This document shows, piece after piece, positions 2,430 to 17,944 of a DNA stretch of 64,000 nucleotides (positions within the stretch are counted from its first letter, which is position 1; every line of letters starts with the position of its first letter). The notes beneath the pieces were generated by a model, which was not told the DNA's origin, made no database searches, and saw nothing but the letters and a program-made list of their open reading frames with translations. Origin of the DNA: Clostridia bacterium (GTDB lineage: Bacteria; Bacillota; Clostridia; Oscillospirales; CAG-272); contig JAKSOD010000001.1 of the NCBI GenBank assembly GCA_024405755.1, positions 8,752-72,751 of the forward strand, written 5' to 3'. Both the position numbers and the translations under genes were made by a program.

Positions 2430-2917
2430 TTATTTTTCAAATTCAAGATGCAAAAGGTTCCCGTTTTTGCCGACGTAATGACCGCTTCCCGCGAATATCA
2501 ATCCGGTATCTTTGAATAATAGGTAAGGCTCGCCGTACTGAACGTCGACGACGAGATTCCCCTCAAAGTCAACAAATCCCCACTTATTGTAGTCGCGCAC
2601 CGCGATAAGTTTATGTTCCGGGAACACTATGGCTTCGTTATACGGCAGGTCAAGTGCGAGTTCCCGCGCTCGTCGATGTAGCCCCATTTCCGTCCAACCT
2701 CCGCGTCGCAGATCTTGTCGGGGAACGAATAGATTTTCTGATCCCTGCCGTTCAGAAATATGAGCAGGAATACTGCGGCGCATACCAATACGGCGGCACA
2801 GACGGAGATCAGAATTATCAACTTCTTTTTTCGAGAATCGTGCTTTTCTTGAAAGTTTCCAGGATTTTCTTCGTTCATTACGTTGTCAGTCATTTGCGGT
2901 TCCTCCTTTTGAATCAT
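2430..2917 (-). pseudogene. WG-repeat (KWG-type) membrane-anchored protein, frameshifted
   Basis: ORFs 2627..2917 and 2430..2783 are two halves of one gene: '..GRKWGYIDERGN' then '..LALDLPYNEAIVF..NKWGFVDFEGNLVV'. One extra G in the GGG run (plus-strand CCC 2663-2665) would restore 'WGYIDERGELALDL'. Confidence 0.6.
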
Positions 2918-3104
2918 AAAATATTATGATGGCAATTTGTGTAGATCGCTGACTCTCATTATTTAATACAGTAAAAAACAAATGATCTTACACTTTTTGT
3001 TTGAAAAAGAAAAAACACCGATTCATTCGATAATATTTCAAAAACTTTTTGATATTTTGTCAATAGCAGTCTTTCGTATTTACATTTAAATTTGATAAAA
3101 AAGA

Positions 3105-3239
3105 CTAAATACAACAAATGGTGTGTAAAAAAATGACGATAACGAGTTTTTTAACACACCATTGCTTTTTCTGACCGTTTTCATCAATAAAGCTGTAAAC
3201 TACGCAGTAGTGTCCTTTTCTTTCAATTATTGAAGCCAT
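3105..3239 (-). pseudogene. Tyrosine integrase remnant (only the first ~27 codons of the arm-binding N-terminus)
   Basis: 44-codon ORF starting 2 nt after the xis stop. MASIIERKGHYCVVYSFIDENGQKKQW matches the typical integrase N-terminal arm-binding (AP2-like) domain, then diverges into WCVKKLVIVIFLHTICCI*. A 13-bp hairpin (3120-3160) sits at the break. Confidence 0.55.
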
Positions 3240-3241
3240 CT

Positions 3242-3484
3242 TTATTCCTCACTTTCCAAGTATTCTTGTTGTTCAATCATCCATCTATCGAAGTCAAGTT
3301 TGGGTATTCTGTAACTACCGGCAACCGAGACATAAGGAATGATGTTTTCTCTTATCATCTTTTTTACCGTTGACTTTTTTACATCCATCTGTTCAGAGAC
3401 TTCATCAAGAGAGTAGTAAAGCTGTATAACATAAAAGTCCTTTCTCAAGCGAAGGCTTGAAAAGGACTTTCTAACGCAGTACAA
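3242..3484 (-). CDS. Excisionase-family HTH DNA-binding protein (Xis)
   Basis: 'LYYSLDEVSEQMDVKKSTVKKMIRENIIPYVSVAGSYRIPKLDFDRWM' fits the excisionase/MerR-like HTH pattern (..RIP...W). The start is uncertain: TTG at 3484 or TTG at 3448. Confidence 0.65.
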   Translation of the reverse strand: MYCVRKSFSSLRLRKDFYVIQLYYSLDEVSEQMDVKKSTVKKMIRENIIPYVSVAGSYRIPKLDFDRWMIEQQEYLESEE

Positions 3485-3642
3485 AGCTCACCGTGCATAA
3501 AAATAGCGCCATGCAAATCGAATCAAGACAGAAGGATACAAGTATCCTGTAAATCTCAATCCGGCTTCGCACGGCGCTTGGAAGTTTTTCAGCCCTTACG
3601 GGACTGCTCCGCTTGCACGATTAGAAATCGTATTGTTTGTAT
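3485..3642 (-). ncRNA. Candidate structured RNA or leader between the wHTH regulator and xis
   Basis: Nested complementarity. Outer pair: cgtgca 3492-3497 with tgcacg 3614-3619. Hairpin 3590-3606 has a GUAA (GNRA) loop on the minus strand. A 9-bp stem (3506-3514/3569-3577) encloses the palindrome AGGATACAAGTATCCT (3533-3548). No class recognised. Confidence 0.3.
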
Positions 3643-3858
3643 TTAATTATCGAATGGTTCTTTCGTTTCAATAGAAGAACCATTATAATAGAGTTCGCCG
3701 TCTTCATTCATACGAGTCAGATACCTGTAAACAGTGGTACGGCTCACATTCAATTTCTTGGCGAGGTCATTCAGCGAAGGCGAGTAGCCATAGCTCCGTT
3801 TCCAATCATTGACGGTATCGTATATTTCTTTTTTAAGTTCCAAACTCTGAGATCTCAT
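3643..3858 (-). CDS. Small winged-helix regulator resembling the LexA N-terminal DNA-binding domain
   Basis: 71 aa. 'GYSPSLNDLAKKLNVSRTTVYRYLTRMNEDGEL' resembles the LexA_DNA_bind-type wHTH. There is no protease domain. Confidence 0.6.
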   Translation of the reverse strand: MRSQSLELKKEIYDTVNDWKRSYGYSPSLNDLAKKLNVSRTTVYRYLTRMNEDGELYYNGSSIETKEPFDN

Positions 3859-3881
3859 TAGATCGCCTCCGTTTTCTATGT

Positions 3882-3930
3882 GGAACGGTTGTTACAGTTA
3901 CAATTATACTCGTTTCAAGAAAAAAATCAA
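3882..3930 (-). promoter_or_regulatory. Promoter of the wHTH regulator with an SOS-box-like site just downstream of the -10
   Basis: Minus strand reads TTGATT (3930-3925), 16 nt, TATAAT (3908-3903). GGAACGGTTGTTAC (3882-3895) approximates the Firmicute LexA box CGAAC-N4-GTTYC with 2 mismatches. Confidence 0.35.
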
Positions 3931-4014
3931 GGGGTATTATGTGAGTTATCGTATGCTAACAATGAAATGTCGGTTTTGACCGACAAAAACTGCATTTGAA
4001 CTTTCTCCGTCCTA

Positions 4015-4043
4015 TTGAAAAAAAGAAAGACCTGTGTTATAAT
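4015..4043 (+). promoter_or_regulatory. Strong SigA-type promoter (extended -10)
   Basis: TTGAAA 4015-4020, 17 nt, TGtTATAAT (TATAAT 4038-4043). Confidence 0.7.
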
Positions 4044-4069
4044 ATTCGCAAGAACAACAACTGAATAAC

Positions 4070-4199
4070 TTTACCTATTAAGAGTGCGTGAGAGACAAGC
4101 TCGCTGACCGCACAGCAACCTACTGAAAGGCAAGGTGCTAATGCTTGAACGATGGGGATAAATAACAGAACCCCGTCGTGACGATGGGGTTCCTTTTTT
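4070..4199 (+). promoter_or_regulatory. SAM-I (S-box)-like riboswitch candidate with intrinsic terminator expression platform
   Basis: Has 'UUAAGAG', P2 GUGCG(4084-88)/CGCAC(4109-13), GAG/CUC in place of GGG/CCC, 'AGCAACC' (4114-20) and 'AAGGUGCUAAU' (4132-42). The loop CAAGC (4096-4100) is complementary to GCUUG (4143-47). Terminator GAACCCC..GGGGTTC 4168-4192 plus T6. A competing antiterminator pairs 4149-57 with 4171-79. P1 and P4 are atypical. Confidence 0.5.
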
Positions 4200-4240
4200 G
4201 CGCTCTCTTTAGGAATATATTTTTTAGGAGGGCGTTTATT

Positions 4241-4576
4241 ATGCGTCAAATCAAAGATTTAGTTCAGGACAAAGAGAAGGTCTGGGTTTATCTGTCCACA
4301 GATGAAGTCGCTCACGGATTTATCACGAAAGCGATATCCGAAGGGTTTCACTGGTCAAATGGTGAACCAATAAGCGAAACTACAACCGGTTATCTGTTTG
4401 GAGTGCATCGTGATCTGTCGATAGCGCATCTTTCAATGTATATTTGGTGTACTGCGTTTCAATGTCATGGAAAGATACCGGGAACACCGATGTGTATTGA
4501 CTATGAAAAGTACGCTGCCGGAGAGCTTGACTACATCTGTCACGAGCCGCACATCAAAGGTGTAATAACAAACTGA
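4241..4576 (+). CDS. Hypothetical 111-aa protein downstream of the riboswitch candidate
   Basis: The ATG at 4241 is preceded by AGGAGG. MRQIKDLVQDKEKVWVYLSTDEV... No family recognised. Confidence 0.6.
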   Translation: MRQIKDLVQDKEKVWVYLSTDEVAHGFITKAISEGFHWSNGEPISETTTGYLFGVHRDLSIAHLSMYIWCTAFQCHGKIPGTPMCIDYEKYAAGELDYICHEPHIKGVITN

Positions 4577-4585
4577 AATAAATAG

Positions 4586-4630
4586 GGCGATGCCGAGAGA
4601 TAAATTCTTTGGCATCGCTCTATTTTTGAT
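4586..4630. terminator. Bidirectional terminator between convergent genes
   Basis: GCGATGCC(4587-94)..GGCATCGC(4611-18) followed by TCTATTTTTG. The reverse reading is followed by CTATTTATTT. Confidence 0.7.
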
Positions 4631-4643
4631 TGCTCAATCTTCA

Positions 4644-4976
4644 TTAACCGGCGCATATAATTTGAGCGCAGACATCGAAATCGTAATTGAGTTTAACGAA
4701 AGATAAGGACACATCATATTTGTGCTTGGCTTCAAAGATACAGTCATCAAAATCATACTCGTTTGTGATGGTGACAAAGTAAGCCACGCAATCTTCGTCT
4801 GTGTTTTTGATTCGCATCACTTTTATTCCATCCATATCTGACACTTTTTTCTTTACAAAGTCAAACAGCTTAGACGGTGTTTGCTTTTCGTGTTTTGCGG
4901 CTCGTGCCGGTTTGGGGATGAAATGATAACATTGCTTTTGCAAACAAGAGTGTTCCTTCATTTGCTTTTCGGTCAA
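4644..4976 (-). CDS. Hypothetical protein; its frame stays open upstream to 5081 and encodes a Cys-rich stretch
   Basis: TTG start in the ORF track. Upstream in frame: '..RRCIDGTTVGCSKCCGYCQYEEQPGF'. May be the 3' half of a frameshifted gene together with 5042..5317. Confidence 0.4.
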   Translation of the reverse strand: MTEKQMKEHSCLQKQCYHFIPKPARAAKHEKQTPSKLFDFVKKKVSDMDGIKVMRIKNTDEDCVAYFVTITNEYDFDDCIFEAKHKYDVSLSFVKLNYDFDVCAQIICAG

Positions 4977-5041
4977 AAAGCCGGGTTGTTCTTCATATTG
5001 ACAGTAGCCGCAGCATTTACTGCATCCAACTGTTGTCCCGT

Positions 5042-5269
5042 CTATGCAACGACGTTCATATTTTGAATTACTGTCTGCTCGTCAACCGATGGATCATTCA
5101 ATATACTACTAATCTCTATCGAATTATCATAGAGATTGAAAACGCCACAATAACCGGTTACAAGGTCTTTCGTCCATCGAATAGACGGTCTTTTCAAGTA
5201 TGGATCGCAATAATAATTTGAACGGACATAATCCAATAGTTTATCAAGATCATGATGATTTGCGTTCAT
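5042..5269 (-). CDS. Hypothetical protein with weak, degenerate SprT-like resemblance
   Basis: MNANHHDLDKLLDYV..PSIRWTKDLVTGYCGVFNLYDNSIEISSIL.. is patterned like the SprT 'v.w..r....G.c....I.ls', but no HExxH follows. Its 3' end overlaps the open frame of the next ORF for 40 nt. Confidence 0.35.
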   Translation of the reverse strand: MNANHHDLDKLLDYVRSNYYCDPYLKRPSIRWTKDLVTGYCGVFNLYDNSIEISSILNDPSVDEQTVIQNMNVVA

Positions 5270-5300
5270 GTTACAAAAATTCACTCCTATGCTTTTTCGC

Positions 5301-5996
5301 TTACTCAATAGATACAACCCTTATGGTTTTACAGGTTATTTTGTGGCTACCTATATCGAACACCTTTGTATCTGTCCTATCGGGGAATACAGGATAGCAA
5401 TAAAAGTCGAAGATGTATTCATCGGTATCGTAATACAGATGTATGTCCAAGATGCCCTCGAATTCGAGCGTTACAATCTTTGTATCATACTCATATTTCA
5501 GCGTTGCGGTATCGTTCTCTTGCTTGAAATAAAATACCTTCCCGTCGTGAAACCACACATCTTTTTCGTAAAAGAGTTCAGAGTTTTCAATTAGGCTCAA
5601 ATATCGCTTGTAGCTTTCTTCGCCGTCATCGGCTTTGAAATCATTTTGCGCTTTCAGCACTTCATATTCTTGACGAGCCTTACTGATTTCTTTTTCATAT
5701 TTTCCCGGCTCATCAACTAAGTCATATTCAGCCATTGCCGGCTCAATATACTTTTTGAAGCGTTCATAATCGCTAATATTGAAATGACCGGGATAAGCCA
5801 TTTGCTTCAAAATACGAGCATACCAAAGGTGATCTTTTTCGGGTTCCTCGACTGCGGCGAGATATGCTTTCAGCAAATAGAATAAGCCCTTGTTTTCTTC
5901 CCGATGCCACTCGTTACAGTGCTTCGGGCAAACCAAGCAATTCCAAGCCGTTTTATAATCTGATATTATTTGTTCCCAATGTTCTGTGTTTAACAT
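5301..5996 (-). CDS. Hypothetical protein (island operon gene G)
   Basis: Start MLNTEHWEQ at 5996 with a GGTGG RBS, 10 nt after the upstream stop. The C-terminus '..TLKYEYDTKIVTLEFEGILDIHLYYDTDEYIFDFYCYP' is reminiscent, from memory, of DUF4085-type immunity-like proteins. Confidence 0.7.
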   Translation of the reverse strand: MLNTEHWEQIISDYKTAWNCLVCPKHCNEWHREENKGLFYLLKAYLAAVEEPEKDHLWYARILKQMAYPGHFNISDYERFKKYIEPAMAEYDLVDEPGKYEKEISKARQEYEVLKAQNDFKADDGEESYKRYLSLIENSELFYEKDVWFHDGKVFYFKQENDTATLKYEYDTKIVTLEFEGILDIHLYYDTDEYIFDFYCYPVFPDRTDTKVFDIGSHKITCKTIRVVSIE

Positions 5997-6006
5997 ATTA
6001 CCACCG

Positions 6007-7437
6007 CTAATTTTTGCCGTAGTTTTCGGATTTGAGTTGTATAAGCTGAATATCTTTGACATATAACTCTGTGAGTATATGTTGGTCGGTATCTATAAAG
6101 ATAGACTCAGGATCGGGTTCGTTGTCAAGATCAGAAATCCAATCATCAAGAACACCTGTGAAGATTTCTCCGTCTTTCATCGTAATTTCGACGCGCTTAT
6201 CTTCAAGTGCATCGAAACATTCACTCATATCAATGATATGGATGGCGTCGCCTTTAAGTTTATAAAGGGCATCATATTGTTTTTTGATCTGACCTGCGAT
6301 TGCAATAAAACTATCAATGCCAAACGGTTCGTTAAAATAATGCGTCATTACTTCCGCAATAACCGAAGCAATCTGATAAATGTCATATTCCGGCTTTAAC
6401 TTGGACGCTATGAGTCGGGACTCGCCGTTGTATTCGTCTTTGGGCGCACCCATTTCAAGCAGCCCTACGCAGTCAATGCTGTCTATTGCGGCTTTAACGA
6501 TACTGAAAACTGATGGCTCAGTATTCAGTACTTCTCCGAGTATTTCGGTATTAAGTCTTTGCATCTCTGCCAAATCGGAATATGGGGGATCTGGTTCAAC
6601 TTTGCAGATAATTGATTTTATCTTTTCAAGCTCCATTGGGAGATCTACTTCATCAAGACTTTCAATGTTTGCAACTCGGACTTTCTTTTGATCGCCGTTA
6701 TTTCCGACCGGAACCATAACCATATCTCCGATATGGATAGTCTTATCATCGGTTTGGTAATAATACTGCTTGCCGCCGTACTCAAACTCGCAGCTACACA
6801 ACCTTATAGCTGAATATGATACCTCGTTAAATACATAGAGTTCCGGCATTTCAAGCATTTCCCGAAGATCATCGGAATATTTATCAAGCCATTTATCTCC
6901 TTCGGTTAAGTAACCGGAGGTACGATACTTCTTGTTCAGTTCGTTGACGATTTCGATGTCCCAAGAACCGACATCGGTTATCATCGTCAAATCAATCAAT
7001 ACAGACAAATGAGTGTTTACATTGTTGAGCCAAGCTACCGCTTTTTCGGGAGGTATGCTTTTTTGCAGTCTGCGTAATGTCTTTCCCTCATAGTTTTTCA
7101 GGGTTATATAGACCTTTCCCGTAGCTGACACAGTGATCTTTTGGATACGTTCTTCATCGGGCTCCGGGCAGGGGCCGTAGCATATACCGTTTGAGTCAAG
7201 AGTGATTTTCTTTGGAACACCGTCTGAAAGCGGTAGTGCGCCAGTCTTAGCGGCATCCTGATACGCAGAAATAACGGAATTAACCATTTCGGGATATACA
7301 TACGAGCGAATTATTTCTGAGATATGATACATCTGTGCCGTTGTCAAACCGTGCTTTTCGCACTCTTTCCAAAGCTCAAGCGTTTTTTCAAATTGAGTTT
7401 CCGTCAATGTATATCCCTCCTTATTTTGAAAATCCAA
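6007..7437 (-). CDS. Hypothetical multidomain protein (island operon gene F)
   Basis: 476 aa. Its stop abuts the gene E region (7437/7438). Contains a 'YYYQTDDKTIHIGDMVMVPVGNNGDQKKVRVANI' module, 'LLEMGAPKDEYNGE' (DUF1871-like, from memory) and a C-terminal 'VEITMKDGEIFTGVLDDW' Sm-like stretch. Confidence 0.75.
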   Translation of the reverse strand: MDFQNKEGYTLTETQFEKTLELWKECEKHGLTTAQMYHISEIIRSYVYPEMVNSVISAYQDAAKTGALPLSDGVPKKITLDSNGICYGPCPEPDEERIQKITVSATGKVYITLKNYEGKTLRRLQKSIPPEKAVAWLNNVNTHLSVLIDLTMITDVGSWDIEIVNELNKKYRTSGYLTEGDKWLDKYSDDLREMLEMPELYVFNEVSYSAIRLCSCEFEYGGKQYYYQTDDKTIHIGDMVMVPVGNNGDQKKVRVANIESLDEVDLPMELEKIKSIICKVEPDPPYSDLAEMQRLNTEILGEVLNTEPSVFSIVKAAIDSIDCVGLLEMGAPKDEYNGESRLIASKLKPEYDIYQIASVIAEVMTHYFNEPFGIDSFIAIAGQIKKQYDALYKLKGDAIHIIDMSECFDALEDKRVEITMKDGEIFTGVLDDWISDLDNEPDPESIFIDTDQHILTELYVKDIQLIQLKSENYGKN

Positions 7438-8154
7438 TTATCCAATAATGTCTAAAAGTGCCTTGATAAATAGCGTTGCTTTTTCCGAAAAATCTTCGTA
7501 AACATCGCTGGTCATCTTTTGGCTCTTGGGAGCAAACATTAGTTTGACCTTTTTTTCATTTTTCGTGTCATATACCGTCAAAGAAAAATCTTCGACAACA
7601 TCATATACTTTTGCTGCGGAAGCGGCAATATATCCCAAGAAAGAACCGCCTGCCAATCCAATCAATAATGCTTTCTCTACTTGTGATCCATCAACTTTTG
7701 TATCATTTTTTGACTCTACGAAAACAGTGCTTGCAGCATTAAGAATATAGTAAAGTGTGACACCAAGATGACTTATCGCAATCATAAATTTACCAGTGAT
7801 TTGGCTTGCCGGATAAAGCGTCATTTGTATATTAAAATAATTATAAGATGCTATCGGATTTTCTGGGATTGAGTATTTTTTACGTTCTTCATCGAGCTTG
7901 TTAATCCGGTTATTACCTGAATAGACATAGCTTATTAGTCTTTCATGAAAATCAAAGTCTTCTATTCCGTTTAAGAAAGCATCAAAATACACATAATCTT
8001 TACGCATCAAGCCACTCACACAGTTTTGACAAATAGTTTTCGGTGGCATGCCTTCAAACTCTTTACACTTTAATACTCCGCTATTAGGAATCTTTACGTT
8101 GAATATGCTTTTAGCAAATTCCGTTTTGCATATAGGACAAATAAGTTTAGACAT
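7438..8154 (-). CDS. Hypothetical protein with an N-terminal CxxC...CxxC zinc-ribbon-like motif (gene E)
   Basis: MSKLICPICKTEF...KTICQNCVSG. A Gly/Ala-rich hydrophobic segment LIGLAGGSFLGYIAASAA lies near the C-terminal third. Confidence 0.7.
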   Translation of the reverse strand: MSKLICPICKTEFAKSIFNVKIPNSGVLKCKEFEGMPPKTICQNCVSGLMRKDYVYFDAFLNGIEDFDFHERLISYVYSGNNRINKLDEERKKYSIPENPIASYNYFNIQMTLYPASQITGKFMIAISHLGVTLYYILNAASTVFVESKNDTKVDGSQVEKALLIGLAGGSFLGYIAASAAKVYDVVEDFSLTVYDTKNEKKVKLMFAPKSQKMTSDVYEDFSEKATLFIKALLDIIG

Positions 8155-8168
8155 ATCACTACTTCCTT

Positions 8169-9269
8169 TTATTTCAACGGTTTAAGTTGGTTTTTCAAAT
8201 TTTCAATTTTTGAAATTGTATCGGCATAAACCGTAAATGCCTCTACAACCTCTGCATCGTTTTCAAAGGTCGGTCTCATGGCAAATTTCTTATGGATCAT
8301 AAAGACCTTTTCAACCTCTGCAAAGCGAATGGTAATCTGATTGACATTCTGCTTTACGATAATGCCGTCACCGTAGTTCTTATGATTTACCTCAACATTA
8401 AGCAAAGAAATCTCTTTATACGGCTCTATACTCAGTTCCAAATCTCTGATCTCTTTTTCAAGTTCTTCGATTTTCTTTTGACGCTCCGCTGCTTCCTGCT
8501 CCCGAAGTTGTTCTAACTTGTAGGACTTAATGCTTTCTTGCTTTGAGATGTGCGTTAGTCCATCGAAAAGATTATATCCACGACAGCAGTACAAAAAGTC
8601 GAAGGCGAGCAGATGTAAGCTCTCATCCGGATAAAAGTCCCCACTGTATATCAACTCGTGATACTTGTCGATCAAAGTCGGGTGTTCTTTCAGTGCTTCA
8701 ACGATCATGTCGCAAAGGGCATAATAGTTCTTTAATTTGAAGTCTTCACCGGCACCGATGTCCATGCCGAACTCAATGTTCTTTGCAAATTCTTCAGCTT
8801 CACTATATCGGTAGATGTAGTTGTGTTCCGGATCAATGAATGTCATGTAGCAAGATGCGGCATGACGGTCTTGCTTATACTTATAAAAGCGAGGAAATGC
8901 TTTCTGACGGAGTTTCTCTATTTCATCGAGGAATGTGTCCAAATGCTTTTGCTTCAAATCAATGTCGCCGTCATCCGGTGCAAACAATACCTCACGGAAA
9001 AGTCTTTCGACCTCTTCGGGGTATTCCTCAGCCAATTTAACAATTCCGTTTGTGGGTGACACCTGCGCATTGTCGATCATATTGGAACATTCTTTTTTTG
9101 CCTCTTTGAACAGAGAGGAAAAATCCGCCGGTTTATTATCTGAGAACCAAACAGAACGAAATTGCTGTACGGCTCTCCATTTGAATACTTCGTTATGCTC
9201 CGAATCATTAAACAAAGCATAATTGCTTTCGTATCTATTGATAAGTTCATGAAGATTATTTGTGTTCAT
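8169..9269 (-). CDS. Hypothetical protein: helical N-domain, coiled coil, and a small beta domain (gene D)
   Basis: 366 aa. 'EVFKWRAVQQF' N-terminal motif. 'LREQEAAERQKKIEELEKEIRDLE' coiled coil. C-terminal 'VNHKNYGDGIIVKQNVNQITIRFAEVEKVF' resembles the small Tudor/UvrD-C-like beta module. Confidence 0.75.
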   Translation of the reverse strand: MNTNNLHELINRYESNYALFNDSEHNEVFKWRAVQQFRSVWFSDNKPADFSSLFKEAKKECSNMIDNAQVSPTNGIVKLAEEYPEEVERLFREVLFAPDDGDIDLKQKHLDTFLDEIEKLRQKAFPRFYKYKQDRHAASCYMTFIDPEHNYIYRYSEAEEFAKNIEFGMDIGAGEDFKLKNYYALCDMIVEALKEHPTLIDKYHELIYSGDFYPDESLHLLAFDFLYCCRGYNLFDGLTHISKQESIKSYKLEQLREQEAAERQKKIEELEKEIRDLELSIEPYKEISLLNVEVNHKNYGDGIIVKQNVNQITIRFAEVEKVFMIHKKFAMRPTFENDAEVVEAFTVYADTISKIENLKNQLKPLK

Positions 9270-9570
9270 CGCTGAAACCTCCCATCCAGTAGTCTTTCAT
9301 TTTTTGGAGAAATTCTTTGGTAATAGGAAACCCAGAACTTTCTCCGATAATTGAATCCGTTCCGCAATAAGGGCATTTTGCCGTGCCATATCTATCACAC
9401 GGATTGTCATCCTCAAGCCACTCGGTTATTTCTTTCGGATCAAAAATGGTCAAGCAGTCGAAGCAGCCACACTTCTTGTCGTGTTGCAATGCTTCTTTAT
9501 GGTTATTGCTATAACGATGCGCAACCACATAATCCGGTTCTTCTTTTCTTGTTTGAGACACGAGAATCAC
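9256..9570 (-). CDS. Small Cys-rich (putative zinc-binding) protein (gene C)
   Basis: 'CGCFDCLTIFDPKEITEWL...TAKCPYCGTDSIIG' carries two CxxC pairs. Overlaps gene D by 14 nt and gene B by 4 nt. Confidence 0.7.
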   Translation of the reverse strand: MILVSQTRKEEPDYVVAHRYSNNHKEALQHDKKCGCFDCLTIFDPKEITEWLEDDNPCDRYGTAKCPYCGTDSIIGESSGFPITKEFLQKMKDYWMGGFSDEHK

Positions 9571-10121
9571 TCCTCATCCATTAACATCATTTCTTCAAGC
9601 CAGTCATCAATTTTGCGGTTTTCGTCATCCTTCAGCCGTTTCTGAGCTTCGTATGGAATATCACCGTAATCTGCAACCGGATAGTTTTCTATAACTACTA
9701 ACTTTTTGTTTCGCCGCAGCAACATTTCTTTGGTAAGATCACGCTCTCTCTGACAAGTGATATACCGCTCCGAGCCGTGCCTTGTTTTGATAGTTGCGAC
9801 TGAAATGTCATACGGCGGGTACTTTGATGTTTCAATTAGATTGTTGTGCGTTTTAACCTTGCCTTCGCTGAGCAATCCTGCTTCCTGAATAATACCTTTC
9901 GTATTAACAAGAGGATAAGGGACATCTTTTGCCTTGAACTGCTGTTTGCCGGCAATGGTTCCGATCTTCCACTTGCCGTTATTTGAGATGGGAACGATAA
10001 CCTTTGTGCCGATACGATGAAATGCAGAATTGGAGCGATACCAATATGTTTTCTCATCATCAAACTTTACAAGATAATAGTTGTATCGCTTCTCGAAAAG
10101 CATCTCATCACATCCTCTCAT
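9567..10121 (-). CDS. Hypothetical protein (gene B)
   Basis: The ATG at 10121 overlaps the gene A stop (ATGA). An alternative ATG at 10103 has a GAGAGGA RBS. 'YYLVKFDDEKTYWYRSNSAFHRIGTKVIVPISNNGKWKIGTI' repeats the module seen in gene F. Confidence 0.7.
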   Translation of the reverse strand: MRGCDEMLFEKRYNYYLVKFDDEKTYWYRSNSAFHRIGTKVIVPISNNGKWKIGTIAGKQQFKAKDVPYPLVNTKGIIQEAGLLSEGKVKTHNNLIETSKYPPYDISVATIKTRHGSERYITCQRERDLTKEMLLRRNKKLVVIENYPVADYGDIPYEAQKRLKDDENRKIDDWLEEMMLMDEE

Positions 10122-11485
10122 TTATGGTGTTCGTTATAGTAATCTTCTGCGTCGTAGTAGTCGAAGAAGTCATCATAATGGTCATAGTAGAAGTCTTCTT
10201 CGTTGGAATAATCGTTTACATCGTAAGGATCATCGTCGCTCTTTGATTTCGTGTTTTTCTTCGGAGTGTATGGAACAACCGGATCGCTTCTGTGATCCCA
10301 CACTTCTGTGACTCGACCTTTAACGCAACGTGCGGTAAATATCGTTTTGTTACCGGACTTAAAATCATACAAATTGGCAATATATCTTTCGCCGTTAATC
10401 ATTTCGGAATTATGGCGCACATTGCTTGAAGGAGCGCCCAAAGAAGTGTTTTTGATTTCACTTTCGGACATTCCAACATAAGGCACTCCGTATGTAATGC
10501 GGTCACGATATGCCTTTGCATCAGCTTCGGACTTTTCTTTAAGATATACGTCGTATTCCGCTTTCAGCGTTTTTACAAAGTCATTTACGACTTTATCTTG
10601 CTCGGAAGAAAGATAGGAAAAACGCACCTTATTCATATCATAATAGGCGCTTGAAATATATCCTCGTTCGTAGTCAATATGTGCTTCGCAAAGCAATATA
10701 TAGGCCGACGTATCATGATAGTTCTTTTCTTCAATTTCCTCGAATAACTCTTTTGCCTCTTTGTAGGAGCCGATGTCAACGAGCGACACCGCTTTATCGT
10801 AAGCATTTGCGAGTTTTGAGGTATTCACTGCCGATATTGTAATTAGTCCTGCGATAACCGCACCAAAGATGCAAGCGGTGATAATCCCACTATTACGCTT
10901 TTTCTTGCGAATAGCAGAGAGTTCTTCTTCCGAAAGAAGTTTCAGATAATTTTCTTTCAAATCATGCAGCTTGTTGCATTCTTCGCTTATCAGCTTAATG
11001 ACGGTACTCCATATAATTCCGAGAACAACAAGTCCGCCGCCAAAAAACAGCAAAAATACGAACCAGTAAGCAGTATTCTTATCATCATAAGATTCAACCG
11101 TTGCCCACATTACCAAGCCGGGAATAAGTGAGATAACAAGACCGATGATTATTGAAATAGCAATACTGAATCTCGATGCGTTTCTAAGATTAGGATAATT
11201 CTCTTTGGTTAGCTTCGACGGAACACTAACGGTTGGTATTGTAGAGGGCGATGACTTGACAACGGGTGCTGCTTTAGGGACAGTGTGATATGTTGGAACA
11301 ATATCAGACTCTATATCTTCGATGTCGTCATCATCAAGATCGTCATCATCGGGATCGTCATCAAGTTCTTCGTTGGTTGTTTCTTCAAAGATTTTATAAG
11401 CGATATATTCTTCGTCAAGGGAGGTCTTTCCATCACCGTCAAGGTCGAATAATCCTCCTAAAAAATCGTCATTCTTACTGCTCAT
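10118..11485 (-). CDS. Membrane protein with an N-terminal EF-hand-like loop, three TM segments and an acidic/Tyr-rich tail (gene A)
   Basis: Start MSSKNDD at 11485 with an AAGGTGGTGA RBS. 'DLDGDGKTSLDEE' is a canonical DxDxDGxxxxxE loop. TM segments around residues 110-170 and 205-225. C-terminal 'EEDFYYDHYDDFFDYYDAEDYY'. Confidence 0.75.
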   Translation of the reverse strand: MSSKNDDFLGGLFDLDGDGKTSLDEEYIAYKIFEETTNEELDDDPDDDDLDDDDIEDIESDIVPTYHTVPKAAPVVKSSPSTIPTVSVPSKLTKENYPNLRNASRFSIAISIIIGLVISLIPGLVMWATVESYDDKNTAYWFVFLLFFGGGLVVLGIIWSTVIKLISEECNKLHDLKENYLKLLSEEELSAIRKKKRNSGIITACIFGAVIAGLITISAVNTSKLANAYDKAVSLVDIGSYKEAKELFEEIEEKNYHDTSAYILLCEAHIDYERGYISSAYYDMNKVRFSYLSSEQDKVVNDFVKTLKAEYDVYLKEKSEADAKAYRDRITYGVPYVGMSESEIKNTSLGAPSSNVRHNSEMINGERYIANLYDFKSGNKTIFTARCVKGRVTEVWDHRSDPVVPYTPKKNTKSKSDDDPYDVNDYSNEEDFYYDHYDDFFDYYDAEDYYNEHHK

Positions 11486-11549
11486 ACAAATCACCACCTT
11501 ACTTATGACAGTATAAGTATAACATCACATGTGTACTATATAACGGACT

Positions 11550-12071
11550 TCATTCTGATTCATTTGCGATGTTGATGATTTTTTTGCCTTGCTTTTCAGC
11601 GTATTTGACCGTCTGATAAGCACCGCCGTTTTCATGGTCGATGTAGCAAATCACAAGATCGGCACGGTCAACCATGTATCGGTTCCTTATTTGAATGGCA
11701 CTTTTGAAATGGGCACGACTGGATTCTTCGCAAATTTCAATTTCATCATAGTATTAATAAAAGTTGTCTTCATTTTTTTCGTATTCTGCTTTCGGATAAG
11801 GAAGAACCCAAATCAACGAACTGTTATCATCACGAACTGCACGTTTCATTCGCTTAACAGTAGATGATACAATTTGATCGAACTCGCCATCTCTGCCAAC
11901 GAGGAAGTCAACATATTCATAGTTGATCAGCAAATCTTTGATATATTTCTCAACGCCAGACTCGGCTTGAGAAAAAAGGTCAATATACCGATGCCCGAAG
12001 AACGCTACTGTAAAAATATCCACTATGTTGCATAAGGTCATCAGATTGTTGGTTTTCAAGTTCAATCTCAT
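11550..12071 (-). pseudogene. SLOG-superfamily DUF1273 (YpsA-like) gene interrupted by an in-frame TAA
   Basis: 'VAFFGHRYID...VDFLVGRDGEFDQIV...LIWVLPYP' then TAA at 11754-11756. The same frame continues 'YYDEIEICEES..IQIRNRYMVDRADLVICYIDHENGGAYQTVKYAEKQGKKIINI' to the TGA at 11550-11552. Confidence 0.65.
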
Positions 12072-12086
12072 TTTGCATAAGTTACC

Positions 12087-14516
12087 TCACTTTATCTTAG
12101 CAAGTACATCCTCAAACTTGGCGTAGTTTACCTTCACACCATCATCGAGATCAATGCGAATCATTTGGTCGGCAAGGTGGTGGATTTTTTCTTCGTAAAC
12201 ACGGATTTCGTTTGCTTGATCCTGTAATTTTTGGAGTTGCTTATTGAGTTTTACACGATCACCAGTGGATGCAGAATTGATGCGCTGTTCCAAATCCGCA
12301 ATTGCAGTACGGTAACGGCTCTGCTGTTCGTGAACATAGTCGGTACGCATACGGGCAATGGTATCCGGCTGATAACGATGCATATAAATCAGTGCCTTGA
12401 AGCCATTTTTCTTGCCACTGTCGAAGAGCCAATAAATCGGGCGCTTCTGATAAATCTTTAGATGGTCAGAATAGAAATCATTCAAGAAATAGTTGCGGAT
12501 AACATCACGAGGAGAACCTTTACCGCCAAGTGCATCTGCAATAAACCTGAGATTTTCTTCTAATGTCTGGGGACCATAAACGATTTCAACCCATTTGATA
12601 AAGCGTCCAGTGATGTCATCATCAAAATAATCATCGTCGCAGATTGGGATGATATTGTCCTTGTCTGCCGGGAAAGAAAGATATTTTGATGTATCCCAAT
12701 CTCCTCCTGCATAGGCAAGACCTTCGCAGTCAAGGGAATAACGTCCAAACATACAGCCAACAGCATAGGAAATCAAACTACGAATATCGCGCACAAGATC
12801 AGCTTTGCGAACGGTTACATTTTTATCATCGACATCAGCTATTACTTCATTTTGCAAACCGTATATATCAATAAAGATTCTGTTAAGTTCTTCTTCATTA
12901 GATTTGAGTTGTTGAAATCTGCGTTCAGTTGTTGCACACCACATCATATAGGCTGACTGAATGCTTGTTTCAGGATTTTCTTTTTCACAATGATGGAATT
13001 GCTTTGTATAAAGACAATTCTTTACAAGTGGATGACATTTGAAATCCCATGATGTTTCAAATGAATCCCAATCTTCTTTTGAAATTGCTATACATGAGTC
13101 GACAAGTCTTTCAATTACAGTTCTGCGATCTTTATCGATTATTACGGGCATAGATTTTATTGTGCCGACCTCATAATTCATTGTTTGACTCAGAGTTCGG
13201 ATTAAAACTTGCATAATGCTTGAATTACAAAGAGCCAAAAGATAAAGCAGATCAGTGTTAGAAAAAATTGAGCAGCCAGCAACATCGAAAGCAGAGCCAA
13301 CAGGTACATATCTCATGGATAAACCGCCACTGGTAACTTTTGACCAAGTGATTGACTCTTTGAAATATAGTTCTCTTGAAGGTAAATGGTTGCCAACGGT
13401 AAGAAGATAATCATAAGATGGTTTATCAAACTTGATTAGATATTCAATGTTTCCATACCATTTTCTAAAACTTCCACCTTTATTATACGGAATATACCTT
13501 TTTCCTCCATCTTTATGAAGATCTTCAAGGCTTTGACTGTGCAATGACACTTGATTAAAGTCAACTTCCGACCATAGTCTTAACATTTTGTTGTTGTCTC
13601 CTGTTGCAAGTCCTTGTCTTGGTTTTGCAACAGAATCAATTACTGGATTGTTTGCAAATATCTCAATAATATGGTCACTAATCCAATAAGCAAATGGACT
13701 CCCAGCAATTTCATGAAATACATCTTGTTTTGTGTTGTATTGCGAAGTATGTTTGAGAAACAATTCTTCTTTTCCTGTTTGGGTTGTTGGCTCGATTAGC
13801 CATGAATACACACCAGTAATATTCTTTATGAATTGTTTTCTGATGACAAAACTTGTGGTTTGAACAACTTCTCCTCCAATTTCTTCAAAAGCATGTGCGC
13901 CGAGATGCGCCATATTTACTACATTATCATGTAAAAGTTTTGAACGCAGTTGCTCAAAACTTGATAAGAACATCCACGAATGTTGTGTGATCATTGCTTG
14001 AAAATAGCTACGATTTGTTAATGAATTACATTTTTCAATGAAGCACGCATATAAATCCGCTTTGCTGTCAGCATAATACTTTTTGACAAAGTTCAGAAGT
14101 TTAGCACTCATTCCTGACGATCCCATATATGGCGGATTCGTCACAACAGCATGATATTTTTGAACTAAGGCTTCTGCAACGTTTATTATCTCTTGCAAAC
14201 GGGCAGATGCTTCTTGCTCACCATGAATATCTAATGTAATCTGACCTTCGGAAACACAACGAGGAACAGCAAATCTTCTGAGCAAATCCCAATCACACGG
14301 GGTAATATTCAAAATTGAGCCGTATTCTTTGGCATCGTTCATTTCGTCGATCAAGCGGATGGTTTGCTTTACCGCTTCGTCATATTCTTCTTCCGTCAGT
14401 TCCAAACCCATATCATGAAGCGGTGCGGTTGTAATACCGTTGCTTTCGACGATAGAATACACATGGGGCTGAATATTGCGACTGAAAATACGGCGGTCAT
14501 ACTGTCTTGCTTTCAT
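12087..14516 (-). pseudogene. pglX: PglX-type (BREX-1 family) N6-adenine DNA methyltransferase, 5'-truncated
   Basis: 'VVTNPPYMGSSGM' (motif IV) and the C-terminal 'RPIYWLFDSGKKNGFKALIYMHRY...DDGVKVNYAKFEDVLAKI' are typical of PglX. Only ~140 aa precede NPPY from MKARQYDRR, and no FxGxG/'DPACGSG' motif I is present. Sequence upstream of 14516 is unrelated. Confidence 0.7.
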
Positions 14517-14583
14517 CCGTATATCTGCTGAGAATATCCAGTATTGCCGGCAGCAACATCCTCTTTGGTGCATTTGCATACAT
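14497..14583 (-). pseudogene. 28-codon remnant resembling the N-terminus of a WYL/BrxR-type HTH regulator
   Basis: A perfect AGGAGG RBS (14591-96) precedes MYANAPKRMLLPAILDILSRYTDESKTV*. The pattern K..LL..L.IL..YTDE matches N-termini of clostridial WYL regulators (from memory). It overlaps the truncated pglX ATG. Confidence 0.3.
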
Positions 14584-14747
14584 AAGCGATCCTCCTGTGC
14601 AAGTCCTTGAACTGTATATATTATAACAACTGCTATGAGTAAAATATGTCCCATAGTTATTGTAGCATATCTTTCTCAAATATTCAAGATTGTACGAATG
14701 ATTTGCTGAACAAGTATTATGTATCCTGTTGCTTTCGCAATGAGCAT

Positions 14748-14793
14748 AAAATAAGAAAAGATGCCACCCGAACATTTCTGTCCGAGTGGCATC
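14748..14793 (-). terminator. Rho-independent terminator after the CHAP fragment
   Basis: GATGCCAC(14760-67)..GTGGCATC(14786-93). The minus-strand reading is followed by TTTTCTTATTTT. Confidence 0.75.
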
Positions 14794-14797
14794 CGTT

Positions 14798-15349
14798 TTA
14801 ATACGCCGGTATTCCGAATCCGAGTATTTCATAGTGTCCTATTGCATACTGTCTTTCAGCACAACTGTCGCTTGTATTTCCCTCAACGGTGTAGATTTTT
14901 CCGTTCTCGACTTTCTCAACGATGCCTACATGATCTGCAAGTCCGTCTTGCGGACCGGAGGAACCTTTGTTATTCCAATCGAAAAAGATTATGTCTCCGG
15001 GATTTGGAGTATAGGAATTATCCTGCCATTCGCTTCTGTCCTTGAACCACTGAACGCCGTTACAGCATCCGGCAAACTTCGGAATAACTCCCACATCAAT
15101 ATATCCGGCTTCATGAGCGCACCATGAAACAAAACAAGCACACCATTCTACACGAGAATTAAAGCCATACCAACGCCAGTATGGTTCGCCGCCGACATTG
15201 CCGATCTGCGTCAATGCAACGGCAACAATGGTATCATTACCGACTGAGAATCCGTATAATACCTGACTCCATATTTTTTGCTTATCCTCAGAAAGCAATT
15301 CTGCAAGTTCTTCCTTTTGAGAAGCATTGAACCCATAGCTGTTCGCCAT
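14798..15349 (-). pseudogene. CHAP-domain peptidoglycan hydrolase of conjugative-element type, N-terminally truncated
   Basis: 'MANSYGFNASQKEELAELLSED..' followed by 'WCACFVSWCAHEAGY...GDIIFFDW...ADHVGIVEKVENGKIYTVEGN' (CHAP Cys/His). ICE homologues are much longer. Its 5' end overlaps the ParA fragment out of frame. Confidence 0.65.
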
Positions 15350-15350
15350 T

Positions 15351-15701
15351 TCATCCACCGTTACCGAGCGTATCGCGCATACTCTGAACAATGGATTTAT
15401 CATTGTTCGTGCGGAAATCCACCATCGTGAACAGAATACCGTCGATCTTTAAGCCCGGATTGATGCTTCGCTGAACCTTTCGGTAAGAATGAAGCAAAAG
15501 GTCAAGACCTTTCGTGGAAAGAATACGGGGCTGAGACGGAACAATAATACTGTCTGCGGCAACAAAAGCATTGATAGGTAAGATACCGAGCGAAGGTGTA
15601 CAGTCGATAAGAATATAATCGTAATTCTTTCTGACCTGATCCACATACGCTTGCGTACCGCTGTTCGGCTCGCTTAACAGATAACGTATCTGTTGGTTTG
15701 T
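15351..15701 (-). pseudogene. ParA/Soj-family ATPase fragment lacking the Walker A N-terminus and the C-terminal end
   Basis: 'NYDYILIDCTPSLGILPINAFVAADSIIVPSQPRILSTKGLDLLL..INPGLKIDGILFTMVDFRTN' is the middle of a ParA. There is no KGGxGK(T/S). The frame opens only after the TAA at 15702-04. Confidence 0.7.
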
Positions 15702-15712
15702 TTATTCAGTTT

Positions 15713-15772
15713 TCAAGGAACTCCGAAGAGGTTTTTGAGTCTCTCGGAGAACCCCTTCACTTGATACGCCAT
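15713..15772 (-). pseudogene. 19-codon remnant resembling an XRE-family HTH N-terminus
   Basis: MAYQVKGFSERLKNLFGVP*. The 'F.ERLK.L' pattern is typical of XRE regulators, and a GGGGAGGA sits ~30 nt upstream. Very short, so weak. Confidence 0.2.
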
Positions 15773-15837
15773 TTCAGAGGGCAAAAAAACAGTGTCCTCC
15801 CCAAAAAAATTTTGAAAATTTTTGAGAAAACAAAAAA

Positions 15838-15884
15838 GAGCCAATCTGCATCACTGGGATTACAGATTGGCTCAATACTTTTTT
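15838..15884. terminator. Bidirectional rho-independent terminator
   Basis: Perfect 11-bp stem GAGCCAATCTG(15838-48)/CAGATTGGCTC(15863-73), flanked by an A-run upstream and TACTTTTTTCC downstream. Confidence 0.7.
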
Positions 15885-15997
15885 CCTTATTAAATATAAT
15901 TACATCGTTTATGTGTTTAGCGGATTTCGTTAGTTTCATGCGTCTATAATTTCAGCATTGTTACGGAATAGCAATGGCGGCATAGACGATGCACCAC

Positions 15998-16402
15998 CAA
16001 AATTAGCAAGGTGGTAGAGAGGGTGCCTGTTTTAGCGATTAGCAAAACGCCATTTTCAATTAGCAAAAAATCGAATTTTGCTAATTGCGATTAGCACGAA
16101 ATCACGAAATCGTTATCAGAGATAAAGAAAAACACGGGAAATCGAAAATCGAAATTCCGTGATAATAGGTGGCGTCCCCGGGCGGATTCGAACCGCCGGC
16201 CTTTCGCTTAGGAGGCGAACGCTCTATCCTGCTGAGCTACGGAGACATTTATGAAAAAATGCAGTATTTACAAGGGTTTTTGGCTTTTTGCGTTCTGCAT
16301 TTTTTGTTTGTTCAGTGCGCTTTGATTAACTAATTGACGATTTTGCTAATCGTTTTTCCTGTTTTTGAGTAACAGGGCGCGAGTGCCCGAAATTAGCAAA
16401 TC
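15998..16402. repeat. Cluster of ATTAGCAA 8-mers (both orientations) flanking tRNA-Arg
   Basis: Perfect forward copies at 16002, 16038, 16059 and 16392. Perfect inverted copies at 16078 and 16343. A 7/8 copy at 16090. Also tandem ACGAAATC x2 (16095-16112) and GAAATC-like x3 (16137-16160). Confidence 0.6.
16170..16246 (-). tRNA. tRNA-Arg (anticodon CCT)
   Basis: Reverse complement is GTCTCCGTAGCTCAGCAGGATAGAGCGTTCGCCTCCTAAGCGAAAGGCCGGCGGTTCGAATCCGCCCGGGGACGCCA. It folds as a cloverleaf with anticodon loop CUCCUAA, a TTCGAATC T-loop and an encoded CCA. Confidence 0.9.
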
Positions 16403-16486
16403 CATCAAAACCTATGGCATCCACAACTCGGTTAGAACTGTGAGCCGTTTTTGCGGCTTTAAGTTTGGGGATAGACGCGCCATTAC

Positions 16487-16526
16487 CTTAGGAGGCGAAA
16501 GCTCTATCCTGCTGAGCTACGGAAAC
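16487..16526 (-). pseudogene. Partial duplicate of tRNA-Arg(CCT): 5' acceptor, D arm and anticodon stem-loop only
   Basis: 38/40 identical to 16207-16246. Identity ends exactly after CTCCTAAG, the anticodon loop, then the sequence is unrelated. Confidence 0.8.
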
Positions 16527-16611
16527 ATATTTACTGTGATATATTATACTACGTTCTCCCTGAAATTTCAAGTACCGAATGAGAGAAAGATAAACTTTTT
16601 ATCAAAGTCAT

Positions 16612-16660: not shown

Positions 16661-17944
16661 TTATTTCTTGTTTTTTTTCTTCTTCTTGTCGTCTTCTTCA
16701 TCTTTGTCATCATCGTAGAGGTCATCATATCCGGAACGTTTTTTCTTGCGGATGACCAGAACGGTAATTACAGCGGCAAGTACAACAACGAGAATTGCGC
16801 AGAAGAGGAACACACCTCCGCCGACGGAACTTTCGACTTTGAGTTCTTCCCAAAGGGAGTTCATAAGAGCTTGGGTATCGGAATCAAGTTTAGCGTAGGA
16901 AGAAGTTTTAACTTCTGACGCGCGGGTGTAAAGGATATCATATGCGTCGGGATGAAGTTCGGCAAGATATTCCTTGTATTCTTCATTGTCCCTGACCTGT
17001 GTGTTGGGAGAAGCATAGCAGATGTATTCGGCGTTTGCAACGGCGGGTTCTTCGGAGAGCATGAAGTTGATGTATGCTTCTGCGAGATCCTTGTTGGCTG
17101 ATCCTTTGGGAATGCACATAGCATCAATGAAGATGTTTGTTCCCTCTGTGGGATAGTAGAATGCAAGTTTGTCGTTGTCGGCATACATGGTGAAGAAGTC
17201 ACCGGCATAATAGGGGGCAATAGCTGCCGAACCGCTCTTCATCTTATTGAAGATCTCGTCCATTACGTAACTCTGGACGTACTGTTTCTGATTTTTTAAA
17301 GAATCAAGAGCTTTCTGCCATTCTTCGGCGGAAGTGGTGTTCACGTCGATGCCGAGTTTATACATTGCAGTTCCGAAGGCATCACGGGGATTATTGAAGT
17401 TGAGGATCTGTCCGGAGTAATCGGGGTCCCAGAGGAGACTCCAGCTGGACTGATCTGTGGGGACTTTTTCTGTATTGTAAATGACACCGACCATACCGTA
17501 AGTGTAGGGAACGGAATATTCATGATTGGGATCATACTTGTTTATGGAGGACTCGGAGTCCTTGAATTCGTCTGCAATATACACATAATTGGGAATATTG
17601 TTGAAATCAAGTTTTTCAAGCATATCCTCGGAGATCATCTGCTGGATCATATAATCGGAGGGAACAACAACGTCGTAACTGACGGCTCCGCTTTTGAGTT
17701 TTGCGTACATATCCTCGCACGATGCAAAAGTTGTGTAATTAACTTTTATCTTTTCGTTGTAGGTTTTAAGATACCATTCCTCGAACGCTTTATTAACGTC
17801 AAGAGAATCGTCGGCTCCATCGGAGATGTACTGCCCCCAGTTGTATACGTTGAGGGTGCGGACGGATCCGCATGAGGCGGATGAGAACAGAACGAGTGCG
17901 ACAGTTACAATGGCAAGAGCAAAAGAGATTATTCTTTTTTTCAT
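16661..17944 (-). CDS. potD: Spermidine/putrescine ABC transporter substrate-binding lipoprotein with an extra C-terminal TM anchor and charged tail
   Basis: Lipobox 'FSSASC'. PotD-like body (..VPSDYMIQQM.., ..YAGDFF..). C-terminal 'GGGVFLFCAILVVVLAAVITVLVIRKKKRSGYDDLYDDDKDEEDDKKKKKNKK'. Last gene of potABCD. Confidence 0.8.
   Translation of the reverse strand: MKKRIISFALAIVTVALVLFSSASCGSVRTLNVYNWGQYISDGADDSLDVNKAFEEWYLKTYNEKIKVNYTTFASCEDMYAKLKSGAVSYDVVVPSDYMIQQMISEDMLEKLDFNNIPNYVYIADEFKDSESSINKYDPNHEYSVPYTYGMVGVIYNTEKVPTDQSSWSLLWDPDYSGQILNFNNPRDAFGTAMYKLGIDVNTTSAEEWQKALDSLKNQKQYVQSYVMDEIFNKMKSGSAAIAPYYAGDFFTMYADNDKLAFYYPTEGTNIFIDAMCIPKGSANKDLAEAYINFMLSEEPAVANAEYICYASPNTQVRDNEEYKEYLAELHPDAYDILYTRASEVKTSSYAKLDSDTQALMNSLWEELKVESSVGGGVFLFCAILVVVLAAVITVLVIRKKKRSGYDDLYDDDKDEEDDKKKKKNKK

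Follow-up and report, generated by a model that had tools for sequence, protein, structure and literature searches.

In the window, as the whole 64,000-nt stretch of Clostridia bacterium DNA analysed here is called, a complete tRNA-Arg(CCT) gene is called by ARAGORN on the minus strand at 16170-16246. The Rfam tRNA model matches this interval with 68 bits, the sole match passing between positions 15500 and 17000. Positions 1-40 of this tRNA are repeated on the same strand at 16487-16526, with 38 of the 40 nucleotides identical and mismatches at tRNA positions 3 (C>T) and 27 (G>T); as judged from shuffled sequences, 0.00 such matches are expected by chance. The partial copy, which holds the 5' strand of the acceptor, the D arm, the 5' strand of the anticodon stem and the loop, is called as a tRNA by neither ARAGORN nor Rfam, and exactly 240 nt (16247-16486) separate it from the full gene. 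Identity stops after CTCCTAAG (16487-16494, minus strand), which corresponds to the 7-nt anticodon loop plus 1 nt, as only five of the following eight nucleotides match. The complete gene, its 5'-half copy and the abrupt breakpoint in the anticodon loop, all described in an earlier sequence-only reading of this DNA, are confirmed.

The gene at 16170-16246 is the only Arg-CCT gene of the 2.12-Mb assembly, and its 3' half has a single occurrence both in the window and in the assembly. The promoter-proximal copy lacks any 3' half, and no orphan 3' half was found in the window or in the whole assembly, a MAG of 187 contigs, by pattern search, short-word BLAST or a loop-plus-T-loop regular expression. 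The only other CTCCTAA on that contig strand, at window position 4224, was considered as the lost 3' half and discarded as the reverse complement of a ribosome-binding site.

A sigma-70-type promoter (TTGAAA, 17 nt, TATAAT; 11 of 12 matches) lies on the minus strand at 16543-16571, and 16 nt separate it from the orphan 5' half downstream. Between 15600 and 16700, no other promoter-like site occurs and no terminator-like site was found, so that no terminator stands between the promoter and the tRNA. A promoter of the tRNA's own within the spacer was also sought: the only candidate, a TTGTAA/TAAAT-like pair, is placed such that transcripts would begin within the tRNA, and the promoter scan gives no site there.

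At higher coordinates, on the right side, the locus is followed by an ABC-transporter operon whose solute-binding protein gene occupies 16661-17944. The left flank is the rplU-ysxB-rpmA operon (540-1645), which is 76-81% identical across the genus. Between this operon and the tRNA, about 13 kb of DNA have a lower GC content (0.35-0.43 against about 0.46) and all their genes are on the minus strand. Most of this region is a decayed ICE-like remnant (3160-16001, minus strand) truncated at both ends, whose cargo includes a ParA lacking the first 110 profile positions, a CHAP protein, an Eco57I/PglX-like methylase, a small wHTH gene, genes of unknown function and an excisionase (3242-3484, minus strand; HTH_17/TIGR01764). 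Directly after the excisionase and 13 kb from the tRNA, the N-terminal fragment of a tyrosine integrase, of about 26 aa, runs from 3239 to 3162 on the same strand and then breaks off. It ends at a hairpin (3120-3160, GGTGTG..A-run / T-run..CACACC) that resembles the terminator of a chromosomal gene next to it; this hairpin marks where the island was cut off by deletion on its left. On the contig of the window, no tyrosine or serine recombinase domain came up when the genome was searched with Pfam.

Genomes and loci compared with this one are given G- and L-numbers, respectively, the genome holding the window being G000. In the island-free relative G021, the order is solute-binding gene, promoter, a single intact 75-nt tRNA-Arg(CCT), terminator, about 1.9 kb, and the rplU operon. 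G005, also island-free, has the same layout with one intact tRNA, except that the tRNA is inverted. Since both carry a single tRNA, the ancestral locus can be deduced to have held one tRNA and no island. An old local duplication shared with island-free relatives, which the earlier reading had named as the finding that would overturn an origin by integration, is therefore not what these genomes display. In the inverted case (L040, G005:C81, 2644-2718), the native tRNA and its promoter are turned together relative to the flanking genes and an extra ORF lies between the tRNA and the transporter gene, which suggests that inversions happen at this locus.

Split states are also found within the genus. 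G017 carries the promoter region of G021 followed by the 5' half of the G021 tRNA, identical at 39 of 39 positions up to CCTAAG; then come about 52 nt of unrelated element sequence and a different complete tRNA-Arg(CCT). Two further members of the genus, G020 and G016, carry orphan halves of their own, and the spacers differ. In the window, the acceptor of the orphan 5' half is of the GTTTCCG type, as in the native tRNAs of G002 and G773. Native singleton tRNAs of two other genera match the full tRNA with 100% identity, whereas that of the genus relative G002 reaches only about 85%. Taken together, these affinities fit an imported gene beside a native relic. Base pairing alone cannot separate host from element in G000, since its orphan 5' half also pairs at 12 of 12 positions with the 3' half of the resident tRNA.

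The origin of the DNA beyond the breakpoint is revealed by G618, a genome of another genus retrieved by a family-wide DNA search in which spacer, tRNA and downstream flank gave a 94% match. Upstream of the tRNA half, G618 and G000 are unrelated (49% in a forced alignment), and their host 5' halves agree at 36 of 40 positions, with four differences. Past the core, the spacer is identical at 227 of 241 positions (94%), the tRNA at 77 of 77 and the next 130 nt at 119 of 131 (91%), before the similarity is completely lost near window position 16038. In G562, the core links the start of this spacer to a third, quite different 5' half. Hence, the element homology of G618 and G562 begins at CTCCTAAG whereas the 5' halves differ, and one element head stands behind three different host 5' halves in three genera (G000, G618 and G562), which upholds the crossover in the anticodon loop proposed from the letters alone. 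The foreign DNA thus starts at the core, at 16486/16487, and what remains at the junction in the window is the host promoter, the host 5' half, the core and a cassette head (spacer, tRNA and candidate arm sites) reaching to about 16038. In addition, the G562 locus (L136, G562:C121, reverse strand, 2760-3140) combines the spacer start of G000, the arm sites of G618 and a different 75-nt tRNA-Arg(CCT), a mosaic that implies modular exchange between cassette heads.

G618 also retains the far end of its element. This element of about 4.3 kb continues on a second contig, with attL on contig C116 and attR at position 4043 of L134, and no integrase was found in it by tblastn. About 4 kb downstream of the orphan 5' half lie a displaced core and a complete 3' half, which pairs with that orphan at 7 of 7 acceptor and 5 of 5 anticodon-stem positions. 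The missing 3' half, which the sequence-only reading had advised searching for, is therefore absent from G000 and present, as a displaced host sequence, in G618; the same 12 of 12 pairing supports its proposal of an orphaned chromosomal 5' half with a full tRNA on the incoming element.

The comparison with G618 bears on two other explanations. Firstly, a chimeric join at a repeated tRNA or a similar assembly artefact might be suspected in a MAG of 187 contigs, the more so as the tRNA-Arg(CCT) genes of relatives often lie at contig ends. But the two copies differ at two positions and have unique flanks, and G618, an independent assembly, shows the same architecture base for base, which leaves an artefact with an almost negligible probability. 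Secondly, the orphan might stem from an older integration and the full tRNA be a hybrid left by excision of a later element between an inner attL and an outer attR. Stacking does happen, as arrays of two to five orphan halves in other genomes show, and the complete genome G063 has two identical scar units before one element. In G000, however, the 77 of 77 identity of the tRNA and the 91% identity of the far-side 130 nt to G618 indicate an intact cassette head rather than a hybrid, so that this explanation, kept as an alternative in the earlier reading, is very unlikely at this locus.

Besides the tRNA, the cassette head contains short repeats. Six of the seven TTGCTAAT motifs of the window fall within 16002-16399, flanking the full tRNA on both sides. 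Two of them are in the spacer, at 16343-16350 on the plus strand and at 16392-16399 on the minus strand, while four more cluster with one GTGCTAAT at 16002-16110 (no strand assigned), an interval inside which the homology to the G618 cassette stops at about 16038. In G618, TTGCTAAT sites also occur 110-140 nt ahead of the far core. Judging from this clustering around the tRNA and before the far core, the repeats are likely arm-type sites for the N-terminal domain of an integrase, an assignment that would place the replacement tRNA within the attachment-site arm.

A candidate recombinase family is indicated by G063, where the genes adjoining the tRNA and reading towards it encode an excisionase and a tyrosine integrase of 483 aa (PF00589), whose N-terminal domain is of the arm-binding type. 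Besides int and xis, this element comprises an IS21 and ParE. The tRNA is preceded by two orphan units, and an orphan core with a 3' half, behind TTGCTAA sites, lies 6.1 kb downstream; this 3' half pairs at 12 of 12 positions with the orphan 5' half that stands outermost. When three integrases of this kind were aligned and used as a query, species-representative genomes yielded 259 relatives, in genera including Faecalibacterium, Gemmiger, Blautia, Dorea, Agathobaculum and Anaerotruncus. In 69 of the 80 loci fetched, a tRNA-Arg(CCT) is located about 200-240 nt past the integrase stop codon on the opposite strand. Orphan 5' halves precede the tRNA in 62 of these 69 loci, as one copy in 41, two in 17, three in 2 and five in 2. 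Loop-to-loop spacing in the arrays has its mode at 92-93 nt, with a few at 272-342 nt, and amounts to 280 nt in G000. An order-wide pattern search agrees with this picture, a real tRNA standing only at the end of each array.

Orphan 3' halves complete the picture at several loci. They lie 4.7 kb downstream in L110 and L088, and directly beside the integrase, without a 5' half, in L123, L049, L065, L071, L080, L100 and L121, as expected if a second element inserted into the tRNA of the first. In every case with both ends (G063, L110, L088 and L123 included), the orphan 3' half pairs at 12 of 12 positions with one 5' half of the array, but at only 7-11 of 12 with the 5' half of the element's own tRNA. 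Core lengths deduced from attL/attR junctions are 7 nt in L110, 11 nt in L088 and 13 nt in G618. The deepest arrays seen are those of L123 and L117. L123, from Angelakisella massiliensis (reverse strand, about 855-1386 and 9719), has five stacked orphan 5' halves of at least three tRNA types before one real tRNA-Arg(CCT), and the matching orphan 3' half is 8.3 kb away, beside the integrase.

The arrays also allow a tandem duplication to be weighed, in which ordinary decay would have removed the 3' half from the upstream copy of an old local duplication. Tandem units repeating every 93 nt or so, roughly the length of a tRNA and 16 nt more, occur widely in the order, and some upstream units retain a degenerate T-arm-like stretch. 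Decay would not, however, leave 38 of 40 identities up to the loop and then none; the same spacer would not be expected behind three different 5' halves in three genera, nor a single tRNA in island-free relatives, nor matching orphan 3' halves kilobases away in other genomes. Such a duplication is, accordingly, highly improbable. A working RNA is another possibility, the orphan 5' half being kept as a leader, a decoy or a small RNA resembling a tRNA half that is co-transcribed with the tRNA. A near-consensus promoter does lie immediately ahead of it and no terminator intervenes up to the tRNA, and such units persist in many genomes. But the 5' halves of arrays differ and match different lost 3' halves, as passive scars would, the spacer families are unrelated to each other, and no Rfam family is matched, so that retention for function appears extremely improbable.

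Several observations concern the surroundings of these arrays. In the canonical ones (L023, L031, L033 and L014), the spacer of about 52 nt, in which AAAATTGAATA comes after a degenerate GTTCGAATCC reminiscent of a T arm, forms a conserved pseudo-3'-half common to several families of the order. It looks like the fossil of a classical attP carrying a 3' half, or possibly is a processing signal. In many Lachnospiraceae loci (L047-L123), the targeted tRNA-Arg(CCT) is found just downstream of serS, within the origin-proximal gidA-gidB-soj-spo0J cluster. ParA homologues upstream of the tRNA in this family, considered as element genes, belong to this chromosomal gidA-gidB-soj-spo0J-serS cluster and were set aside.

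Exact-pattern scans of metagenomes for the host promoter junction and for the cassette junction gave no match, and a plasmid collection gave tRNA-length matches only. In a phage collection, the best integrase matches are below 50% identity and fall in unverified faecal contigs of 4-12 kb. Two human-faeces contigs deposited as "bacteriophage", likewise unverified, encode integrases 48% identical to the family: L137 (MT836781, 1592-3720) and L139 (MT836186, 2860-5065). In both, the core and a tRNA-Arg 3' half follow the integrase in the same direction, a layout of the classical type. The sequence ahead of the L139 core is identical to that abutting the split tRNA in L080, so such elements may compete for the same site, L137 and L139 being possible competitors of the classical type.

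The integrase family also clarifies the nature of the 13-kb island of the window. The 26-aa fragment at 3162-3239 is 58% identical to residues 20-45 of the G063 integrase, and the xis-int pair of the remnant would accordingly derive from the family of the tRNA-Arg(CCT) integrases, a placement judged from 58% over only 26 aa. This pair reads away from the tRNA locus, which is the reverse of the standard layout of the family, and a simple single integration would not give that direction. Inverted repeats, which could have explained why the ICE remnant is turned round, were sought at its borders, and none exceeded chance. Rather than one element, the island is a composite wreck in which only about 0.45 kb of the tRNA-cassette head survives; the core is indeed the right end of foreign DNA, as the sequence-only reading had placed it. 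Elsewhere in the assembly, contig C184 (2756 bp) carries a second truncated integrase of the same family, 51% identical over 174 aa, behind a Schlafen/AlbA_2-like regulator gene. With neither a tRNA nor TTGCTAAT sites on that contig, it was dismissed as the recombinase of this locus and called unrelated.

From all these data, the locus is with high probability the attL left when an element integrated site-specifically, cut the resident tRNA-Arg(CCT) gene in two within its anticodon loop and brought a full replacement tRNA, the orphan 5' half being the host side of this attL. In the proposed mechanism, element and target would share only the loop CTCCTAA(G). As the shared sequence consists of the anticodon loop and 0-6 flanking bases, strand exchange must fall within CTCCTAA, which makes the core at 16487-16494 the presumed exchange region. 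Because the element would bring no matching 3' half, the host gene would not be rebuilt: its 5' half would be orphaned behind its promoter and its 3' half displaced to the far end of the element. The element would compensate with its own complete tRNA-Arg(CCT) just inside the junction. Since the spacers hold no properly placed promoter or terminator, the replacement tRNA would most simply be read from the host promoter through the scar, in G000 probably across the orphan half and the 240-nt spacer, and then probably be freed by normal tRNA processing. The cassette, devoid of an integrase, was presumably moved in trans by tyrosine integrases of about 460 aa of the kind that is widespread in Clostridia. 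In the order of decay envisaged for G000, the far junction was then lost, so that the arrangement would be frozen and the cell now dependent on the imported tRNA. As for arrays, a new element may enter the tRNA of the resident element, and homologous collapse between element copies, or excision between the inner left and outer right sites, may then leave an additional 5'-half unit, a course that fits G063, L088 and L123.

On a wider scale, the evidence tips somewhat in favour of a view of tRNA-Arg(CCT) in gut Clostridia as a horizontally replaceable part, repeatedly overwritten by integrase-bearing islands and integrase-less cassettes, each of which would put the tRNA that it carries under the host promoter and turn the 5' half of its predecessor into a scar transcribed along with it; in the window, one end-state of such overwriting would be preserved, frozen. 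If this holds, arrays up to five deep would be an ordered record of successive invasions, with the host dependent on the tRNA of the last invader. The strategy of destroying the host tRNA and bringing one's own would extend from a few actinophages to non-viral islands and cassettes very common in human-gut Clostridia. It would also account for orphan 5' halves at tRNA-Arg(CCT), for assembly breaks at this gene and for a core tRNA that is identical across genera. In annotation, an orphan 5' half ending in CTCCTAA(G) upstream of a full tRNA-Arg(CCT) could be read as the exact end of foreign DNA, and an integrase with a minimal core in the anticodon loop may serve as an integration tool for Clostridia. 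The copy in the window itself is a decayed example that adds little function of its own.

Among known systems, cis-mobilizable elements and att-site accretion were described around ICESt1 and ICESt3 of Streptococcus thermophilus, where CIMEs rely on a recombinase acting in trans and stack at one site, their target being the 3' end of fda. The cassette of G618 and G000 resembles CIMEs in having att sites and arm-like repeats without a recombinase, and its mobilisation in trans is presumed; G618 has both att sites and no integrase, and G000 retains only attL and the 0.45-kb head. Unlike those of the ICESt1/ICESt3 family, the elements here enter a tRNA gene in its interior and stack by inserting into the tRNA of the element before them. 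An anticodon-loop class of integrase target sublocation is itself said to have been recognised by Williams in 2002.

In classical tDNA islands (Islander database, PMC4383910), the element carries the 3' part of the tRNA, a hybrid gene is regenerated and the displaced 3' fragment is found at the far end. The Clostridial elements share with them a predicted tyrosine integrase, a crossover in the 7-nt anticodon loop and an integrase gene adjoining the junction. In contrast, they regenerate nothing: next to the promoter a 5' fragment stays behind as an orphan, and the element brings in an entire tRNA gene; the displaced 3' fragment, absent from G000, is the whole 3' half of the host gene in relatives.

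The closest parallel is the tRNA-dependent lysogeny of actinobacteriophages (Fionnbharth/K4, cluster L and others), in which a tyrosine integrase acts on an attB within a host tRNA gene (Guerrero-Bustamante & Hatfull, mBio 2024, PMC10865867). There, the core is of about 10 bp, no functional tRNA is rebuilt and a compensating tRNA is present on the element (PMC10865867). The Clostridial loci likewise have a short core, of 7-13 bp, with no functional tRNA rebuilt (compare PMC10865867), and a complete tRNA-Arg(CCT) on the element, 240 nt inside the junction in G000. Their junction is inside a tRNA gene, and a predicted tyrosine integrase (PF00589) adjoins it in 69 of the 80 loci of relatives, although in G000 only the putative 26-aa fragment subsists, 13 kb away. 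Full-text literature searches retrieved no description of this Clostridial family, and no phage structural genes were found, including in the G063 element (int, xis, IS21, ParE) and the 4.3-kb G618 cassette. It thus seems that a non-phage split-and-replace family of Clostridia is undescribed, its principle being known from actinophages. Unlike the latter, the Clostridial elements are small integrase/excisionase islands, ICE-like elements and integrase-less cassettes, and their target is tRNA-Arg(CCT) rather than tRNA-Lys. Their replacement tRNA lies 50-240 nt from the core, apparently within the attachment-site arm, where the host promoter could drive it. Finally, as a further difference, later Clostridial elements insert into the tRNA of earlier ones, so that orphan 5' halves accumulate in arrays.
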